From: Steroidobacteraceae bacterium
Lineage (GTDB): Bacteria; Pseudomonadota; Gammaproteobacteria; Steroidobacterales; Steroidobacteraceae
Length of the DNA stretch: 64,000 nt
Assembly: GCA_035277965.1 (NCBI GenBank)
Contig: DATEJM010000004.1
Span: forward strand, 22,868-86,867
Reading direction: 5' to 3'
Position numbers and translations under genes: made by a program. The notes beneath the pieces are model-generated. The model was not told the DNA's origin, made no database searches, and worked only from the letters and a program-made list of their open reading frames with translations. Positions 51,269-61,249 of the stretch are shown in pieces. How positions within the stretch are numbered: the first letter of the stretch is position 1; each line of letters opens with the position of its first letter.

Positions 51269-52556
51269 TGGAGAGAATGGCGAGCCGCGAGTCATGGCTC
51301 AAGAGGGCGACGACACCCGTCAGCGTCGGCCCGAGAATGGCAGCAGCTTTGCCCATGAGGTTGTAGAAGCCGAAGAACTCTCCGGCCTTGCCGGGCGGCA
51401 CCAGCCGTCCGAACAGCGAGCGCGAAAGCGATTGCACACCGCCCTGCACCAGGCCGATGACGATCGCCATGGTCATGAATTGCGCTTCGGTGTGGAGGAA
51501 ATACGCGTAGCCCGCGATACCTGCATATACGGCGATGCCGAGCAGGATCCCCGTCCGCGGTCCGAGTTTCTGTCCGAGCCAACCGAAGGCAAGCGCCGCC
51601 GGGAAGCCCACGAATTGCACGACGAGCAGCGCCGTGATCAGGCTGTTCTGCTTCAGGCCCAGGGACAGGCCATAATCGACGGACATCTTGATGATGGTGT
51701 TGACGCCGTCGATGTAGAACCAGTACGCGAGCAGAAACCACAGGAGCACGCGGTCATGCCGCAGGTGCCGCAGCGTGCCTCCGAGCTCGCGTAGACCCGC
51801 TCCGATCGCAGCGAGCGCAGGCAGCGGCTGATTCGTCCTGCGCTCGCGCACCAATGTCAGGGTGAAGAGGGTGAACAGCATCCACCAGGCGCCGACCGAT
51901 ACGAAGGACCAGCGGACGCCCTCGCCCGCGTTTGCGAGCCCGAACGAGCCCGGCTTCGTCACCATCAGCACGTTCAGGGCGAACAGCAGGCCGCCGCCGA
52001 GGTAACCCAGAGCGAATCCGTATCCTGACACGAGATCGTATTCGGGCACGTCGGAAACGTCCGTGAGCAACGAGTCATAGAACTGGTTGCCTCCCCAGAA
52101 ACCGAGCGAGGCAGTCACGTACAGGACGGCCGCGGTCACCCAATCGCCCTTGCCCACGAGATACAGCGCCGTAGTCGCCGTCGTCCCCAATACTGTGAAC
52201 AACCCGAGCAGCTTCACCCGGGCGCCACCCTTGTCCGCGATGGCTCCAATGAGCGGCGCCAGCAGCGCCACGATGAAGCTGGCGACCCCGTTTGCCAGAC
52301 CCAGACGGAAAGTGCTCTCCGTAGCGACCGAGCCCGCGCTCCAGTACTGTTTGAAGAACAGCGGGAAGAATCCCGCCATGACCGTCGTGCTGAACGAAGA
52401 GTTGGCCCAGTCGTACATGGCCCAACCGAACACGGAGCTGCGCGTCAAAACCCGGCGCCGGGCGGGAACGCCTGCCCCCTGCCCGGGGTCGTGGCTGAGC
52501 GGCTGCCGTGCCGCGGCCGCGGCGCTCGACGAGCGGCCACTCTCCGCCTCGCTCAC
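51204..52556 (-). CDS. MFS transporter, UMF1 / Atg22-like family
   Basis: 450 aa, polytopic. [26 protein letters not shown] is the family hallmark. The GTG start overlaps the prfC stop (GTGA). Confidence 0.7.
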
Positions 52557-54160
52557 GCGGCCTGCTCGCGGGTCTCGTGGAAGAGGATGTCAGGCCAACG
52601 CTCCCGGGTCAGCTCGAGGTTCACACGCGAGGGCGCGAGGTAAACGAGCGCTCCGCTGTGATCGATGGCCAGGTTGTCGTGTGCCCGCGTGCGGAACTCC
52701 TCGAGCTTGCGAGGATCGGCGGCTTCTATCCAGCGCGCCGTGTGAACAGTGATGGCGTCGAACACGCATTGCACGCCGTATTCGTCCTGCAACCGAAACG
52801 CGACCACCTCGAACTGCAGTTGCCCGACGGCACCCAGGATCAGGTCGTTGTTGCGCAGCGGCTTGAAGAGCTGCGTGGCGCCTTCCTCGCAGAGCTGCGA
52901 GAGCCCCTTGCTCAGGGCCTTTGCCCTCAGGGGATCCTTGAGCACCGCGCGGCGGAAGATCTCCGGCGCGAAATTCGGGACACCCGTGAAGACCAGCTTC
53001 TCGCCTTCCGTAAAGGTATCGCCGATGTTGATCGTGCCGTGATTGTGCAGCCCGATGATGTCGCCGGCATACGCCTCCTCGGCCTGCTCGCGCTCGGCGG
53101 CCATGAAAGTGAGCGCATCCGCGACCCTGACCTCCTTGGCGAGACGCGAGTGATACATGCGCATGCCGCGCGTGTATTTCCCCGAGCACAGACGCAGGAA
53201 CGCGATGCGGTCGCGGTGCGCTGGATCCATGTTTGCCTGGATCTTGAACACGAAGCCCGCCAGCTTGCCCTCCAGCGGCTCGACCGGCCGCTCGCGCGCC
53301 ACGCGCGGCAGCGGCGCCGGAGCGTGCAAGGCAAACGACGCCAGCAGCTCCTCCACCCCGAAATTGTTGATCGCCGATCCGAAGAACACCGGCGTCTGGC
53401 GTCCGGCCCTGTAGGCCTGCGCGTCGAAGGTTTCCGTGGCGCCCTGCACCAGCTCGATCTCTTCGTCGAAGCTGCGCGCCAGATCGCCGAGGAACTCGCG
53501 CGCGGCGGGACTGGCCAGTCCGTCGATCGTACGGTTTTCGCCGATCCGGCCGCGCTCGCCTGGCGCATACACGTAGATGCGGTCTTCGAGCAGGTGGTAG
53601 ATCCCGCGCAGCTCCCGCCCCATACCGATGGGCCAGGTCACGGGAGCGGTGCGAATGCCGAGCACCGTCTCGATCTCGTCCAGCAGCTCGATGGGCGCGC
53701 GGCCTTCGCGATCGAGCTTGTTGATGAAAGTCATGATCGGCGTGTCACGCAGGCGGCAGACCTCCATGAGCTTGATCGTCCGCTCCTCGACGCCCTTGGC
53801 GCAGTCGATGACCATCAGGGCGGAGTCGACCGCGGTGAGCGTTCGGTAAGTGTCTTCGGAAAAATCCTCGTGGCCGGGGGTGTCGAGCAGGTTGATGATC
53901 CGGCCCCGATACGGGAACTGCATGACCGAGGAGGTCACGGAGATGCCGCGCTGCTGCTCGAGCCGCATCCAGTCCGAGGTGGCATGGCGAGCCGCCTTGC
54001 GCCCCTTGACCGTACCCGCCATTTGAATGGCGCCCCCGAACAGGAGCAGCTTCTCGGTCAGCGTCGTCTTGCCGGCGTCGGGGTGCGAGATGATGGCAAA
54101 CGTTCTGCGACGATTGATTTCATTGGAGATTTCTGCTTCCGTCACCGACCGATTCCTCAA
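52553..54160 (-). CDS. prfC: Peptide chain release factor 3
   Basis: [37 protein letters not shown] and NKLDR. The start may be TTG 54160 or GTG 15 nt downstream. Confidence 0.9.
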
Positions 54161-54284
54161 TGTGTACCACGTTCATGTACACGGATTCCGAAGTACGCGT
54201 GCTTGATCTTGGCTTTTGCCAGGCAGCTTTCACTGGCCCATAGGGCAGCGTAAGTGCCTGAACCCATTATACCGTAGTGCTTGT

Positions 54285-54313
54285 TTGACACGATAACCTA
54301 GAGAATGTAGAAC
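54285..54313 (+). promoter_or_regulatory. Candidate sigma-70 promoter of the Fic gene (TTGACA-17 nt-TAGAAC)
   Basis: A consensus TTGACA sits at 54285-54290 and TAGAAC at 54308-54313. The first ACCTAGA box lies inside the spacer. Confidence 0.5.
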
Positions 54314-54375
54314 TTCATTACCTAGAAGTGGACAATCTCAATAACCTAGAAAACGTCAGACCGGTTGACCTAGAA
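54296..54375 (+). promoter_or_regulatory. Four direct ACCTAGAR boxes phased exactly 24 bp apart (putative operator array)
   Basis: ACCTAGA starts at 54296, 54320, 54344 and 54368 (taACCTAGAg, ttACCTAGAa, taACCTAGAa, tgACCTAGAa). The last box ends 9 nt before the Fic ATG. Confidence 0.6.
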
Positions 54376-54383
54376 AGACGCCC

Positions 54384-55925
54384 ATGGCTGCTCCCGCTGA
54401 AAAGCTCGCCGACTCCCTCTCCGCGCTCAAAGAGCTCCATGACAAAGGGGTGGTCGCGATCCGCACCGGGCAGCTTTCGCGTACACACCGTGAGCGTCTA
54501 CTGAAGGCTGGTTTTATCCGTGAGGTGATGAAGGGCTGGTACACCCCGACGCGCCCTGATGAGCCGGCCGGCGAAAGCACAGGGTGGTATGCATCCTTCT
54601 GGTCGTTCTGCGCCGAATACCTCACCGATCGCTTCGGCGAAGACTGGTGCCTGAGCCCCGAACAGTCCCTAACCCTTCATATAGGCGATTGGACGGTTCC
54701 CAAGCAGCTGCTGGTCCGATCGACCAAGGGGGGAAATAAGCCCACCCAGCTCCTCTTTGGGACATCCGTATTCGATGTCCGCCTGGAGCTTCCGCCCGCA
54801 GGTGATCGCGAGCTCAAGAACGGCTTGCGCATCTTCAATTTACCGGCAGCCCTGATCGGCTGTGCTCCGGGTCAGTTCACGGATCATCCCGATGACCTGC
54901 GGGCAGCCTTGGCAATGGTTGCGGAGCCATCCGATGTCCTCCGCCGGTTACTTGGCGGCGGCCGAACGGTGGTGGCCGGCCGGCTGGCCGGCGGATTCCG
55001 GAACATTGGTCGAAACGAAATCGCGGATCAGATTCTTCGAGCCATGAGGGCCGCCGGCCACGCCGTCCATGAGGTCGACCCCTTCAACAGCAAACCCCCA
55101 ATCATTTTTGCTGCACGCGAAACATCCCCGTATGTCAACCGCTTGAAACTGCTCTGGGCGTCCATGCGCGCCCCAATTCTTCAAGCCTTCCCAGCCCCAC
55201 CTGGAACAAGAGAGGAGGCGGCCGCCTATCTCAAGCACGTAGATGAACTCTACGCCGCCGACGCCTACCACTCGCTGTCCATCGAGGGCTATCGGGTTAG
55301 CGAAGCTTTGATCGAGCGCGTCCGCTCGGGCAATTGGAATCCCGATGACGACGAGAATGACCGCCAGAATCGAAATGCCTTGGCCGCACGAGGCTACTGG
55401 CAAGCATTCCAGCGTGTAAAAACAAGCCTTGAACGGATTCTCGCTGGCGAAAATCCTGGCGCCGTGGTGCGACGTGACTACGACGCATGGTACGCAGAAC
55501 TGTTTGGCCCGAGTGTCACGGCCGGCATTCTCAACGCCGCCGACCTTGCAGGCTTCCGGAATGGCGCGGTTTACATTCGCCGCTCCATGCACGTTCCGCC
55601 AGACTACGAGGCAGTGCGGGAACTGATGCCCCAGTTCTTCGAGCTTCTGCAAACGGAAACCGAGCCCGCGGTGCGGGTCGTGCTGGGGCACTTCGTGTTC
55701 ACCTACATCCACCCGTACATGGATGGAAACGGCCGCATGGGGCGCTTTCTCATGAACACGATGATGGCGGCCGGCGGCTATCCCTGGATGATCATCCCCG
55801 TTGAAAGACGTCATGAGTACATGGCGGCCCTCGAGGCTGCCAGTGTCGGTCAGAACATCTCACCGTTTGCGGAATTCCTGGCAAGCCTCGTCAAGCCACC
55901 GAGACCGGGCGCGAGCGGATCGTAA
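54384..55925 (+). CDS. Fic-family protein (class II, internal inhibitory helix) with an AbiEi-like wHTH N-terminal extension
   Basis: The Fic motif HPYMDGNGRMGR fits HxFx(D/E)GNGRxxR. The upstream SLSIEG fits the (S/T)xxxE(G/N) inhibitory motif. The N-terminus LKELHDKGVVAIRTGQLSRTHRERLLKAGFIREVMKGWY resembles AbiEi-type antitoxin heads. Confidence 0.85.
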   Translation: MAAPAEKLADSLSALKELHDKGVVAIRTGQLSRTHRERLLKAGFIREVMKGWYTPTRPDEPAGESTGWYASFWSFCAEYLTDRFGEDWCLSPEQSLTLHIGDWTVPKQLLVRSTKGGNKPTQLLFGTSVFDVRLELPPAGDRELKNGLRIFNLPAALIGCAPGQFTDHPDDLRAALAMVAEPSDVLRRLLGGGRTVVAGRLAGGFRNIGRNEIADQILRAMRAAGHAVHEVDPFNSKPPIIFAARETSPYVNRLKLLWASMRAPILQAFPAPPGTREEAAAYLKHVDELYAADAYHSLSIEGYRVSEALIERVRSGNWNPDDDENDRQNRNALAARGYWQAFQRVKTSLERILAGENPGAVVRRDYDAWYAELFGPSVTAGILNAADLAGFRNGAVYIRRSMHVPPDYEAVRELMPQFFELLQTETEPAVRVVLGHFVFTYIHPYMDGNGRMGRFLMNTMMAAGGYPWMIIPVERRHEYMAALEAASVGQNISPFAEFLASLVKPPRPGASGS

Positions 55926-56026
55926 CGCCCCTGGCTCCGCGTACCCAATTGACCGGCACGGCCGGGAGGTTGACGCCTCACGTGACCGTATTGGGTGTGG
56001 AGCACGTGTGGACCTTCGATCTCACG

Positions 56027-57142
<1,116 letters not shown>

Positions 57143-57155
57143 GTCTCCCCTTGGA

Positions 57156-57731
57156 TTACTGCTTCAGAACGCCAGCGGCCTTCGCTACGTGTGTCGCGAT
57201 GAAATCCATCAAGGGTGGCGATAGGCAGTCATAGGGCTCGAGCCCCAATTGTTTCAGCCGGCTGCGCACCGCGCCCATGTTCGCCGGATCGGCTCCAGAC
57301 TCGATGATCGAGGACACGAAGGCGGCGAACTGCGGCTCCGACCAGCCGCTCTGGGGCGACAGCTCCGTATGGATGAAGTCCAGCCCGTAGAACGGGTGCT
57401 TCTCGTTCTCGATACGGCCGTACATATGCACGCCGCAGGCTTTGCAGGCGTAACGTTGAATGGTGGCCTTGGGATCGACGATCGCGAGCTTCGCGGCGCT
57501 TTTTGTGACGCTGACTTTATCGCGCGGCGCGACCGCCACGACCGCAAACAAGGCGCCTTTGGGCTTCCAGCACTTGGTGCAGCCGCAGGCATGGTTGTGT
57601 GCCGATTGCGCGTTGACGGTGACCTCGACGGAATCCGTCTTGCACTGGCACCGCAGCACCCCGCCCGCGAAATCCTTCGCAGCCGGTTTGATCCCCGAAT
57701 CGACCGATGGATGAATGGAAATGCTGGCCAT
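57156..57731 (-). CDS. gfa: S-(hydroxymethyl)glutathione synthase (glutathione-dependent formaldehyde-activating enzyme)
   Basis: [17 protein letters not shown]...[13 protein letters not shown]...[23 protein letters not shown]...FVSSIIESG is near-collinear with Paracoccus Gfa. Start trimmed to ATG 57731. Confidence 0.9.
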
Positions 57732-57823
57732 GGCCTCTGCTCCCCCAAGAATGATTGTCACCGCTCGTCGCGGTCTTGCAGCCGAAGGCTACCTCGGTCG
57801 TGCGGATACTAGAGAGGACGGCA

Positions 57824-57856
57824 GGGCATGCCCAAAAGTGAGTCAGTTCTGACTCA
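57824..57856. promoter_or_regulatory. Two adjacent perfect palindromes (GGGCATGCCC; TGAGTCAG-TT-CTGACTCA) between the regulator and gfa
   Basis: Read directly at 57824-57833 and 57839-57856. The 2-nt centre is too short for an RNA hairpin loop, which favours a dimeric protein operator. Confidence 0.45.
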
Positions 57857-57910
57857 GTGAGGGGTATCCACCGTAGGGGGCCGGGCCCGTGCTGGGCGGG
57901 AACCTACGGC

Positions 57911-59050
57911 TCAATCCGACTCGCCGCTCTCCCAAGCGCAATAGCGCTGCAGGCCATGCCACTTGAGCTTGCGATGCAGGGTCCGGCGGCTGATGCGTAA
58001 CTGGGCTGCCGCGCGGCTGACATTCCAGCCATGGCGTTGCAGCACTTCGCGCAGGGCTTCGTGCTCCGCCTCCATCAAGCGATTGTCACAGCAGCGCGGT
58101 GCCGTGCGGCTGCCGGCGGATGCGTGGTCTGTTGCGCGCTGGATGATCCCGTAACACAGCGAGCCGCGCTCTCGCGAAGGCAGGGGTCTTGCGAATGCCG
58201 GGTCGTGGCCGAGGGCTTCGAGTCGCCCCAGGTCCAGGCCGAACAAGCGCTCGACCGTTTGCCCACAGAGGCTCGCGTGATCTGAAACGCCGAGCCATTC
58301 GAGCGCGCTGAGATTGGCGCCCGTTACTGTCCCCGCATCGTCGATGGCCAGGATGCCCTCGCCCGCCGTCGAGATAAACTCGCGATGAGGATGGAATCGC
58401 AACAGGTGATGGTGCGGCTGATGCTCCGCCAGCAACACCCGGTTCTCGACGTTCTGAACGGCCAATCGCACCAGGGCCAAGGTCGGCGCCGCAGACAGGC
58501 GCAGCCGGCCCGAGATATTGAGCGCGCCGATGAGGTCCCCGCGGCCATCCCGGATAGGCGCCCCGCAGCACGTCAAGGCTACATTCTGGGACAGAAAGTG
58601 CTCATCTTCCTCGATCAGCACCGGCTCGCGTATCGCGAGGCAAGTGCCCATCCCGTTGGTGCCTTGCTCGGCTTCGCTCCACACCGCGCCCTCGCACAAG
58701 CCGCTGTTGCGGGCAACCTCAGTAAACTCCCGTGCCCCGGTGTAAGCGAGGATCACGCCCTCGTGGTCTGTGAGCATGACGCCGACCGGGGCATTGAGCA
58801 GGCGAGCGAGCGTCATCATCTCGATCTGCGCAATCGAGTAGAGGAGCTCCGATTCTCCGCGGCGGTGTTTGAGCTCGGCGCCGGACACGATCGTCGGGTG
58901 GCCCGCGCGATCGGGATTGAGCTGATAGCTCGATACGCAGCGGCGCCAGGAGTCGCGGATTCGGTGATCGGGAGCCGACGTCGGCGGACGGCCGGAGATC
59001 ACCGAGTCGATGAACTGAGCGTGGGCTCGCCGTGTATCAACCTGTTTCAT
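57911..59050 (-). CDS. GAF/PAS-like sensor plus Fis-type HTH regulator (AcoR-like but lacking the sigma-54 AAA+ module)
   Basis: The N-terminal AcoR-type region has GTNGMGT. The C-terminus ALREVLQRHGWNVSRAAAQLRISRRTLHRKLK is an HTH_8. There is no Walker A / GAFTGA anywhere in the 379 aa. Confidence 0.7.
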   Translation of the reverse strand: MKQVDTRRAHAQFIDSVISGRPPTSAPDHRIRDSWRRCVSSYQLNPDRAGHPTIVSGAELKHRRGESELLYSIAQIEMMTLARLLNAPVGVMLTDHEGVILAYTGAREFTEVARNSGLCEGAVWSEAEQGTNGMGTCLAIREPVLIEEDEHFLSQNVALTCCGAPIRDGRGDLIGALNISGRLRLSAAPTLALVRLAVQNVENRVLLAEHQPHHHLLRFHPHREFISTAGEGILAIDDAGTVTGANLSALEWLGVSDHASLCGQTVERLFGLDLGRLEALGHDPAFARPLPSRERGSLCYGIIQRATDHASAGSRTAPRCCDNRLMEAEHEALREVLQRHGWNVSRAAAQLRISRRTLHRKLKWHGLQRYCAWESGESD

Positions 59051-59288
59051 CCGTACCCTTGCCCCCACGGGTCGCCGAATGTCGTCGGAGCGCGGTGAGT
59101 GTGGAGTGATCTACCTTCACGCGCAGATTGTACCGCAGTGCGCCCCGCCCCGCGCTTGAGGTCAGGCGTGCGCAGCAACGCCTCCGCGAGCCCCATGAGC
59201 GCCTTGCCTGGACGCTCATGCCGATCGCCAGACGCGGTTGCAGACTAACCATCGTAAGGGTTGCGGCGTCGAGCTTTGCGCGCCTCAA

Positions 59289-60035
59289 TCAAGGCGTGCC
59301 GCGGCAGGTGATGCCGAGGAGCCATTGACTGGGATCCGCCGCGGTGTTGAGGCGCGCCCGATACCCGAGATCGAGGTCGAGACCCGGGCGCACGGTGTAG
59401 ATCACCCCAACGAGCGCTACTGCGAGGTAGTCCGACTGGGTGGCATCCGAGTTGGAGTCCACGGACGTGTCGAGCACGAGCTGCAATCGCTCATTGGCCG
59501 CGTAGAGGCCGGCGAATGAAGCATGCAGAATGTCGCCTCTGTGCCCCAGATCGCCTGGCGAGCGCGCGTAGCCAATGTTGGCGTCGAAAGAGAACGGCGT
59601 GAAGTCCGCCGCGATCACCAGAATGGCGTGCGGGGAAACGTGGTGCACGGAGCCCAGGTCGTCCTGGCCGGTCGGCGCGGCGAGCCCAGCCCGTAGACCC
59701 AGCGTCCACGGCGCTGACCCGAAGAATCGCCATTTGGCATCGACGTTCGTGTCGCCGAAACCCTGCTCGCGAGTGCCGTCGCCGCTATGGGTCAGCCAGG
59801 AGGGCTGCACGAGGAGGTCGATGGTCGGCGAAACTCCGTATGAGAGCTGCGGTTGGAACAGGAAAGAATGATGCCCCGCGGACCGGGTCCAGGCATTTCC
59901 GAGCTCGAGCTCGATGTTGCCGGCACCCTGAGTGCCCGTATCCTCGGTGATCATGGGGTGCGCGGCCTGCGCCGTGGAAGAGACCACGGTAATGACGACT
60001 GCGGTCGCTGCCGCAAGCAGATCGTGGCGAGCCAA
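59289..60035 (-). CDS. Outer-membrane beta-barrel protein, MetA-pathway/transporter-like family
   Basis: Signal peptide ...SSTAQAA, then HPMITEDTGTQGAGNIELELG with alternating beta-strand patterning. Family assignment is from memory only. Confidence 0.5.
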   Translation of the reverse strand: MARHDLLAAATAVVITVVSSTAQAAHPMITEDTGTQGAGNIELELGNAWTRSAGHHSFLFQPQLSYGVSPTIDLLVQPSWLTHSGDGTREQGFGDTNVDAKWRFFGSAPWTLGLRAGLAAPTGQDDLGSVHHVSPHAILVIAADFTPFSFDANIGYARSPGDLGHRGDILHASFAGLYAANERLQLVLDTSVDSNSDATQSDYLAVALVGVIYTVRPGLDLDLGYRARLNTAADPSQWLLGITCRGTP

Positions 60036-60169
60036 GGAGTGGGCACCCGCAGTTTGGGGGTAACCTCACATCGTAGCGAGCGCCTGAGACAGAAAGATGA
60101 CCGCACCGGATGCTCCGCGGTCGTGATCTACTTGCGCGGAACCGGGTAGGCCCAACTTGTAGGACGCTC

Positions 60170-61249
60170 ATGCCGCAGCGCGCCCTGAGCCGTGCGATTC
60201 GAATCGGTTTGGCGTGGATCCTCGGCTGGTTGCTGGGCGGCCTGGTCACGCCTGCGGGACGGGCAGCTGAAGCGGCTACCGGACACGCAGCTGCGCCAGC
60301 GACCGTCATTCGAGGCGCCGGCGCAACCTTTCCGGCTCCCCTGTATGTGGCCTGGGCCGCGGCATATCACGATACGGGTGGGGCTCGAGTCGAATATGAC
60401 GCCGTCGGCTCCGGCAGAGGCATCGACGAAATCAAGCAGCGCGCGGTCGATTTCGGCGCTTCGGACGCGCCCCTCACGCCCGAGGACGCAGCCGCGGCTG
60501 GCCTCCTGCAATTTCCCGCGGTCATCGGCGGAGTCGCGCCGGTCATCAACATCACCGGCATCAAGCCGGGAGAGCTCGTCCTCGACGGTGGTGTGCTGGC
60601 CGATATCTACCTGGGCCGCATACGCAAGTGGAACGACCCATCGATCGCGCGACTCAATCCGACTGTCGCGCTGCCGAATACCCACATCACCGTCGTGCAC
60701 CGCGGCGACGCCTCGGGCAGCTCGCTCCTTTGGACCGACTATCTGTCACGATCGAGCCCCGAGTGGCGGCAGACCGTGGGTACCAGCCTCGAGCCTCACT
60801 GGCCGGTTGGAGTCGCCGGAACAGGCAACGAGGGCGTCGCCTCGTACGTGCAACGGACGAGGTTCGCGATCGGATACGTCGAGTATGCGTTCGCGCGTGC
60901 ACACCATTTGAGCGACATCGCGCTGCGCAATCATGAAGGCCGTATCGTGCGGGCCGGACACGAGAGTTTTGCAGCGGCGGCGGACATGGCCAGTTGGGAT
61001 GACCTGGCGCACATCCGGCAGATGCCGACGGACCTGTCGGGCGCTCGGAGCTGGCCGATCACCGGAGCGAGTTTCATTCTCGTGCCGGAGCACGATCCGC
61101 GCAGTGCGGCCGTCGTGGCGTTCTTCGGCTGGGCGTTGCATTCCGGCGGAGCGATCCTGCGTCGCCTCGCCTACACGCCGCTGCCTCGCAGCGCCGTCGA
61201 GCAGTTGCCAGGGCTGTGGGCCAAGCTACCGCGCGCGGCGCCCCGATAG
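60170..61249 (+). CDS. pstS: Phosphate ABC transporter substrate-binding protein PstS (orphan)
   Basis: GAGATFPAPLYVAWAAAY...YDAVGSGRGI...DFGASDAPL...HRGDASGSS. Start set at MPQRALS (60170). No pstCAB genes are adjacent. Confidence 0.8.
   Translation: MPQRALSRAIRIGLAWILGWLLGGLVTPAGRAAEAATGHAAAPATVIRGAGATFPAPLYVAWAAAYHDTGGARVEYDAVGSGRGIDEIKQRAVDFGASDAPLTPEDAAAAGLLQFPAVIGGVAPVINITGIKPGELVLDGGVLADIYLGRIRKWNDPSIARLNPTVALPNTHITVVHRGDASGSSLLWTDYLSRSSPEWRQTVGTSLEPHWPVGVAGTGNEGVASYVQRTRFAIGYVEYAFARAHHLSDIALRNHEGRIVRAGHESFAAAADMASWDDLAHIRQMPTDLSGARSWPITGASFILVPEHDPRSAAVVAFFGWALHSGGAILRRLAYTPLPRSAVEQLPGLWAKLPRAAPR

Follow-up and report, generated by a model that had tools for sequence, protein, structure and literature searches.

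The locus considered here raises the question of what a lone gene for a Fic protein, preceded by a strictly phased array of short direct repeats, is for, and whether the protein itself reads these repeats. The window, i.e., the whole stretch of 64,000 nucleotides that was analyzed, comes from a Steroidobacteraceae bacterium (GenBank assembly GCA_035277965.1, contig DATEJM010000004.1, positions 22,868 to 86,867 of the forward strand), and the gene encodes a protein in which an N-terminal module resembling the antitoxin AbiEi is fused to a C-terminal Fic domain. The present analysis indicates that this protein most likely reads its own array, as judged from the way in which protein and repeat sequences vary together. 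Gene and array can with good probability be described as a self-contained, self-repressed one-gene Fic cassette, most likely a growth-arrest module of the addiction or anti-phage type.

The motif ACCTAGAR occurs exactly four times in the window, always on the plus strand and with spacings of 24, 24, and 24 bp, as a first-pass annotation of this DNA had reported, while shuffled sequences give an expectation of 0.63 and none of 100 shuffles reached four. To this can be added a weaker fifth copy one period upstream, which the repeat finder lists as a 63% copy at 54269-54303. All the 24-bp units start with C, and the last one runs into the ATG. The TTGACA-17-TAGAAC motif that the annotation had taken as a promoter is present, and so is the claimed placement of the boxes, with one in the spacer and three in the 5′ untranslated region (UTR) between the −10 hexamer and the ATG. 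A pattern search of the whole 4.38-Mb genome found no phased box pairs elsewhere, and the gene for the fusion protein is present there in a single copy; the sole target found in its own genome is thus its own promoter.

The annotation had called the array iteron-like and suggested that it is an operator, and the homologs support a conserved, operator-like array that co-evolves with the protein. In the 160 nt upstream of the gene at 80 homologous loci and in the window, the 24-bp periodicity amounts to 0.456 against a background of about 0.28, and it is absent downstream. A position-weight search of the same sample found 296 units in 79 of the 81 loci, 209 of the 217 spacings being exactly 24 bp. 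The consensus unit reads C-A-y-A-A-W-A-A-(C/G/A)-C-(T/G)-A-A and ends in an A-rich tail, with positions 1, 5, 7, 8, and 10 (C1, A5, A7, A8, and C10) nearly invariant. The number of units per array ranges from two to seven by motif search, with at least 10 phased copies in one locus (L014), and the homologous arrays end 12-30 nt 5′ of the ATG. Of 161 loci, 141 have the hexamer T[TC]GAC[AG], and 17 nt downstream the most frequent hexamer is TACAAC (82 loci). On account of these conserved hexamers, the −35 and −10 elements are placed at fixed positions of the units, across the unit borders, with the last base of the −10 coinciding with C1 of the next unit. Boxes with other sequences, phased at 24 bp and recognized by eye, also precede plasmid homologs of 50-59% identity, among them those of Bacteroides thetaiotaomicron VPI-5482 and Agrobacterium. 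One locus from Acidobacteriota (L057, 3800-4000) is without 24-bp units and carries two copies of GGTGATTG(A/G)CAGGTAT.CCGTC about 29 bp apart.

The boxes are uniform within a locus and differ between loci (ACCTA, AGCTA, AGCGA, AACTA, and AGATA). The box type follows the protein tree, with 13 changes compared to 31 in shuffles, a correspondence that shared descent alone could explain. A more specific link is provided by the protein alignment, in which column 117 is the most informative about the box core (mutual information of 1.22 bits, the runner-up having 0.82). Residues 116-119 are GGNK in proteins with the box core ACCT, ARNK with AGCT, ARNN with AGCG, and (A/G)(Q/K/S/T)NN with AACT. Expressed for residue 117 and base 9 of the unit, Gly, Asn, or Asp goes with C, Arg with G, and Lys, Gln, Ser, or Thr with A, and this rule fits 163 of 166 loci. 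Arginine and guanine form a classic direct-readout pair. Loop and box also switch together inside otherwise uniform clades (L046, L062, L041, L074, and L022); the pairing is obeyed by 80 metagenome relatives of one such clade, and it holds in three same-genus and eight plasmid homologs that were fetched afterwards. The arginine-guanine part of the rule emerged from the first 78 loci and was then obeyed by all 47 G-type rows among 88 later loci.

The contribution of descent was assessed by counting independent pairs on supported branches of a tree from which the loop columns had been excluded. Seven such pairs obey the G-R rule and none is contrary (sign test, p 0.016). The classes of residue 117 that go with A and C were defined post hoc, and they give six pairs (p 0.03) and five pairs (p 0.06), respectively, again with none contrary. 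Four loci with an ambiguous box register (L205, L206, L210, and L214) were left out of this final test. Earlier tests of this kind on 78 and 155 loci were underpowered (p 0.06-0.25), and significance was reached after 11 more loci. In protein pairs of 75-97% identity, residue 117 differs in 97% of those with different bases at position 9 and in 4% of those with the same base; the corresponding values for residue 119, which co-varies with base 11, are 86% and 3%. All other columns fall well behind, the gap of the next unrelated column being 0.42. Because residue 117 changes in step with base 9 across the 166 loci, the fusion protein very probably binds its own repeats.

A further association was observed between residue 133 and base 13, where a residue other than Arg (His, Lys, or Asn) is found in 11 of 17 rows with G and in 5 of 133 rows with A (residues 133-134 are encoded at 54780-54785 of the window), the independent-pairs test not being significant for this link. 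Tyr at position 134 accompanies ACCTAT-type boxes in five loci.

The same data bear on the possibility that the protein does not read the repeats at all and that they serve as the site of a host factor, as a curved-DNA promoter element, as plasmid iterons or a partition site, or as an RNA in the 5′ UTR, which we consider highly improbable. The A-rich character of the units would fit such functions, but the box co-varies with residues 116-119 over 166 loci with independent switches. Direct-repeat arrays are indeed typical of iterons and centromere-like sites; the present array, however, always lies over the promoter of its own gene, including chromosomal single-gene loci without replication or partition genes, and the iteron/partition reading was rejected because of these. 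Several units are transcribed, yet the arrays extend 5′ of the −35, so not all units are. Finally, an Rfam search of 54100-54500 returned no family, giving only a chance snoRNA match (E 0.42), for which reason the RNA-element reading was dropped.

The module that would bind the array was modeled separately, for residues 1-275 and on the basis of 76 homologs. The model is confident, with a predicted local distance difference test (pLDDT) score of 89.7, and contains a winged helix-turn-helix (wHTH), a long helix, a row of strands, and six helices. It superseded a first model of the whole protein (pLDDT 72.9), whose N-terminal half was poor and whose fold search returned Fic proteins only. The top Foldseek match in the PDB is AbiEi of S. 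agalactiae (6y8q, E 1.8e-4, probability 1.0), followed by M. tuberculosis Rv2827c (1zel, E 1.1e-3, TM 0.50 over 254 columns, probability 1.0). The next matches are nucleotidyltransferase folds, a likeness that has been reported for AbiEi itself (PMC7319586). The annotation had seen in the N-terminus a resemblance to the winged-helix head of AbiEi. According to the model, residues 1 to about 240 would instead form a complete two-domain AbiEi-like module rather than the head alone, an assignment that is well supported by fold and weakly by sequence: the protein shares the two-domain fold of AbiEi/COG5340 and matches none of the Pfam families AbiEi_1 to AbiEi_4. NCBIfam and PADLOC have no model that matches residues 1-280, and a search of the whole genome with PF13338 found nothing.

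The C-terminal half belongs to the self-inhibited Fic domains of class II, as follows from its invariant catalytic and inhibitory motifs and as the annotation had proposed. The Pfam Fic family (PF02661) matches residues 391-460 with 47.4 bits against a cut-off of 24, this being the sole Pfam match of the protein. The active-site motif HPYMDGNGRMGR fits HxFx(D/E)GNGRxxR with Y in place of F, in line with membership of the Fic/Fido proteins, and SLSIEG, located about 140 residues N-terminal to the active site, fits the class II pattern (S/T)xxxE(G/N). None of 26 homologs departs from the Fic motif or from any of the six residues of SLSIEG. Among proteins of solved structure, FICD/HYPE match best, over residues 281-502 (E 2.7e-18), and the whole-protein model gives FICD fold matches with probability 1.0. 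On these grounds, the Fic half would act as an AMP-transferase restrained by the helix carrying Glu301.

On the basis of these results, the following mechanism can be proposed. The N-terminal module, consisting of the wHTH and the C-terminal domain (CTD), would occupy the four to five direct units in head-to-tail order, with each 24-bp unit taken by a single monomer, as suggested by the covariation and the precedent of AbiEi. The invariant recognition helix (residues 33-42) would read the invariant 5′ part of the unit, i.e., C1, A5, A7, A8, and C10, while the variable CTD loop 115-120 would read the variable bases 9-13. The bound units would span the −35/−10 spacer, the transcription start, and the 5′ UTR of the gene itself, and their occupancy would block RNA polymerase, such that the gene keeps its own product at a low, fixed level. 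Autorepression is suggested by this geometry, in which the spacer holds one box and further units cover the start site and the 5′ UTR, and by the behavior of AbiEi and of the Fic repressor CccR discussed below. The product, a FICD-like class II Fic AMP-transferase, would be held in check by its own Glu301 helix, and the cassette would spread horizontally as gene plus operator, on plasmids and chromosomes and across phyla.

It was also considered whether the protein binds the array and thereby activates the promoter or forms a bistable switch, the box in the spacer being a MerR-like or class II activator site. The conserved TACAAC hexamer lacks the final T, and such a weak promoter might need help; units are also present upstream of the −35. 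Two to three units, however, always lie downstream of the −10, up to the ATG, which is the geometry of a roadblock, and both AbiEi and CccR are autorepressors. We regard activation as quite unlikely.

Several results weigh against the autorepressed growth-arrest cassette proposed here. A generic scan for sigma-70 promoters and terminators returned no sites and did not call the candidate promoter, since its second hexamer ends in C, without the T at position 6; the assignment consequently relies on conservation in the homologs, and with the promoter position being inferred, so is repression. The period of 24 bp corresponds to about 2.3 helical turns, which would place neighboring bound monomers about 100 degrees apart and not on one face of the DNA, an unusual spacing for cooperative binding on a single face. 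The post hoc definition of two of the three residue-117 classes has been mentioned above. At the sequence level, the homology to AbiEi is weak: an hhalign comparison with an alignment of 17 AbiEi_1 homologs, of the kind proposed with the annotation, is collinear over 214 columns with E 0.0048 and a probability of just 7%. Pfam gave no match to residues 1-280 in any of the 76 homologs, even up to E 10, and a hidden Markov model of the N-terminal alignment found no AbiEi among the PDB sequences, only chance matches to alpha-repeat proteins. The PADLOC model for SoFic (PDLC03963) matches residues 289-503 (E 3e-21, model positions 56-260 of 361), i.e., the Fic half only, and thus lends no support to a role in defense; the NCBIfam model for SoFic has a cut-off of 550 bits, of which the protein reaches 32.6. 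A search of 50,697 phage records gave no homolog. Finally, the invariant inhibitory Glu fits a regulated, non-toxic enzyme equally well.

The distribution of the family bears on the role. More than 8000 full-length relatives, counted as clusters and of about 505-530 residues, were scored, and the 120 of them that were listed are 67-96% identical. A search with the N-terminal module alone gives 1391 clusters (50% identity); among the matches listed, the full-length members have about 500 residues. At least 581 loci are found in one-genome-per-species collections, to which at least 579 metagenome loci can be added, and the hosts of the former include Gamma-, Beta-, and Alphaproteobacteria, Desulfobacterota, Acidobacteriota, Verrucomicrobiota, and Vampirovibrio. 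The family is present on 80 plasmids, 41 of which are conjugative. Within the genus of the window, the gene occurs in 3 of 18 genomes, at other loci and with 61-73% identity, and was not found in the other 15, nor in 12 other genomes of the same order. No neighboring gene is conserved in the 80 homologous loci, and the variable neighbors include integrases, a transposase, a gene of the TOTE conflict system, and an AAA_14/DUF4143 ATPase. This patchy occurrence, together with the plasmid carriage, the atypical base composition described below, and the variable neighbors, suggests a role as a toxin or in addiction or defense.

Some observations on individual members can be added. In Agrobacterium pAt1D1460 (L206), Ruegeria (L215), and Phyllobacterium (L216), the deposited coding-sequence starts differ from the family start MA.P..KLA, one being 72 nt too early and two late by 72 and 159 nt, and look mis-annotated. 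The genome of L017 holds a second, partial paralog of the N-terminal module with 42% identity (L222), and in Aminobacter pSR7 (L213) another gene annotated "Fic family protein" lies directly upstream of the cassette.

The protein could, on the other hand, bind the array and be an ordinary physiological regulator-enzyme with no function as a toxin or in addiction or defense, acting by reversible AMPylation or de-AMPylation of a host protein, in the way that FICD acts on BiP, or by a self-modification that tunes its DNA binding. We consider this possible, although doubtful, and give substantial weight to a regulated, non-toxic enzyme. FICD/HYPE is the nearest relative in both sequence and fold, and the inhibitory Glu is invariant. 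In FICD, the same residue supports de-AMPylation. The lack of copies in the phage records would also be expected of such an enzyme, and the housekeeping gene prfC adjoins the cassette in 8 of 81 loci. A core regulator is harder to reconcile with a distribution that is patchy within a genus yet shows high identity across phyla, with carriage on plasmids, with the cassette's own array being the only one found in the genome, and with neighbors that vary and are often mobile or defense-type genes, all of which are hallmarks of a selfish or defense cassette.

The coordinates of the features in the window are collected in Table 1.

Table 1. Features of the Fic cassette and its surroundings (positions in the 64,000-nucleotide window)
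Feature	Position	Strand	Basis
prfC, neighboring gene	52553-54160	−	
Unit 0, degenerate, 5′ of and overlapping the −35	54265..54288	+	10 of 13 core consensus positions, by eye; repeat-finder copy
−35-like TTGACA, across the border of units 0 and 1	54285..54290	+	homolog conservation
Unit 1, box ACCTAGAG at 54296-54303, in the −35/−10 spacer	54289..54312	+	
−10-like TAGAAC, 17-nt spacer, last base equal to the conserved C1 of unit 2	54308..54313	+	homolog conservation
Unit 2, box ACCTAGAA at 54320-54327, over the predicted transcription start	54313..54336	+	
Unit 3, box ACCTAGAA at 54344-54351, in the 5′ UTR	54337..54360	+	
Unit 4, box ACCTAGAA at 54368-54375, running into the start codon	54361..54384	+	
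Coding sequence of the 513-residue AbiEi-like::Fic fusion protein (P0001)	54384..55925	+	open reading frame, homologs
Predicted wHTH, residues 1-55	54384..54548	+	model secondary structure, fold matches, invariant columns
Predicted recognition helix, residues 33-42, nearly invariant	54480-54509	+	model, homolog alignment
Predicted AbiEi-like CTD, residues ~66-235: one helix, row of beta-strands, six helices	54579..55088	+	model, fold
Putative specificity loop K115-G-G-N-K-P120, residues 117 and 119 co-varying with unit bases 9 and 11	54726..54743	+	alignment of loci
Inhibitory-helix motif SLSIEG, residues 297-302, with Glu301	55272..55289	+	alignment
Fic active-site motif HPYMDGNGRMGR, residues 443-454	55710..55745	+	sequence, Pfam, homolog alignment
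Zinc alcohol dehydrogenase gene (adhC), neighboring gene	56027-57142	−	

The annotation had described the locus as an AT-richer islet holding a single gene between prfC and adhC, and both the arrangement and the reading frame, with its intact Fic motif and SLSIEG, proved correct. The composition, which had been judged by eye, is also as described: the gene has a GC content of 0.605, compared to 0.653 for the window, which places it in the bottom 1.6% among windows of equal length, and a GC content at third codon positions (GC3) of 0.687, compared to 0.78-0.85 for the neighbors. The intergenic DNA 5′ of the gene has a GC content of 0.475.

The notion of an inserted islet stands only in part. 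The composition is atypical and the occurrence in the genus patchy, but three related metagenome-assembled genomes (MAGs) of the Steroidobacteraceae type (L001, L002, and L003) carry the gene divergently beside prfC, as in the window. Because they share this site, the fusion gene is not a private recent insertion next to prfC. In five same-genus genomes without the gene, the DNA 5′ of prfC is unrelated, and no clean insertion boundary can therefore be drawn. The genes at 61.2-64 kb of the window follow the fusion gene directly in L002 and after about 3 kb in L003, which makes the block of adhC, GFA, and regulator genes extra in the window. This block, with its Fis-type regulator (window 55926-61230), could represent an insertion in the lineage of the window or a deletion in L002.

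Of 81 loci, 8 share the location beside prfC, which codes for RF3, and the divergent orientation (the window, L001, L002, L003, L009, L014, L026, and L035), and they represent at least four orders. With about 110-220 bp between the start codons of the cassette and prfC, the array has to border on the prfC promoter or overlap with it. In L001, the Fic protein is 95% identical to that of the window, and prfC just 79%. This adjacency could stem from a preference for the site, from joint transfer with prfC, or from functional ties to the translational GTPase.

It is instructive to compare the cassette with the systems that it resembles. In the AbiE systems (type IV/VII), the AbiEi monomer binds a half-site of about 23 bp and represses its own promoter (PMC3985639). 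DNA binding requires the full-length protein with both domains, the positive face spanning the two (PMC3985639, PMC7319586), and the CTD consists of a helix, a row of strands, and a six-helix bundle (PMC7319586). The window module shares the two-domain fold and the CTD layout (6Y8Q, 1ZEL), and common to both is a monomer-sized site of about 23-24 bp over the own promoter, which in the present case is probably bound, as judged by the covariation. That both domains contribute to binding is known for AbiEi from mutagenesis and is for the window protein suggested by the covariation of the CTD loop. The differences are that the window protein matches no Pfam AbiEi model, that its sites are four to six direct repeats with a strict 24-bp period, overlapping the candidate promoter, whereas those of AbiEi are inverted pairs of 23 bp, and that Fic is fused to it in place of a separate gene for the AbiEii/DUF1814 nucleotidyltransferase. 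As the annotation had noted, no such gene is adjacent, the neighbors being prfC and the alcohol dehydrogenase gene.

A characterized functional analogue is CccR of Yersinia pseudotuberculosis, a Fic toxin with a fused C-terminal HTH that represses its own promoter near the −35/−10 (PMC9755527). Here, too, a Fic AMP-transferase and a DNA-binding domain are united in one polypeptide, and the window protein would repress in a similar manner. In this SoFic-type architecture, however, the Fic domain comes first and the HTH last, the reverse of the window protein, and the DNA-binding fold is another. CccR also binds as a dimer to two palindromes with a 26-bp spacer and is secreted by a type VI secretion system (PMC9755527), unlike what is proposed for the window cassette. 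The SoFic anti-phage system in PADLOC is likewise a single-gene Fic with a C-terminal wHTH, and only its Fic core matches. The cassette is a member of neither the AbiEi nor the CccR family, although by analogy it would work like both.

With FICD/HYPE and the other class II Fic proteins, such as that of C. difficile (4X2C/4X2E), the window protein shares the canonical motif and the N-terminal intramolecular inhibitory helix. FICD has tetratricopeptide repeats and a membrane anchor and the small class II proteins have no extension, and in none of them is an AbiEi-like module or an operator array present. The class I pairs FicT/FicA and VbhT/VbhA share the restraint of Fic by an inhibitory Glu and the logic of growth arrest; there the inhibitory helix is provided by a separate small antitoxin, whereas the window protein carries this helix in its own chain, the antitoxin-like portion fused to Fic being a predicted DNA binder. 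A full-text literature search for AbiEi/COG5340 with Fic and for Fic autorepression by direct repeats, with subscription-only papers outside its scope, found no description of this architecture. The annotation knew of no characterized example, and for the architecture none was found here either; a functional analogue, CccR, is characterized.

A more far-reaching reading, which as a whole we deem unlikely, joins two ideas. The N-terminal half would be a modular reader of 24 bp per monomer whose specificity depends on one or two residues of the loop (117 and 119), and the family would have diversified into orthogonal repressor-operator pairs that resemble immunity groups. The array DNA would at the same time serve as the antidote, in that protein polymerized on its own array is held inactive; upon loss, degradation, or titration of the cassette DNA, as by plasmid loss or phage, free monomers would be released and Fic would arrest growth. 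If true, such a cassette would be a one-polypeptide addiction or abortive-infection module without a labile protein antitoxin.

The findings give a large family that is annotated only as "Fic family protein", with thousands of clusters in hundreds of species and at least six phyla and with a member (BT_RS24275) on p5482 of the laboratory strain Bacteroides thetaiotaomicron VPI-5482, a concrete and testable mechanism, in which a complete AbiEi-type repressor, an auto-inhibited AMP-transferase, and their own operator would come in one package. The predicted recognition rule for base 9 (Arg117 for G; Gly, Asn, or Asp for C; Lys, Gln, Ser, or Thr for A) means that natural variation directly predicts specificity-switch mutants, which is rarely the case. 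If this is confirmed, a set of autorepressors orthogonal to one another could be taken from the family, which would also offer single-gene toxin or defense modules of a new architecture.

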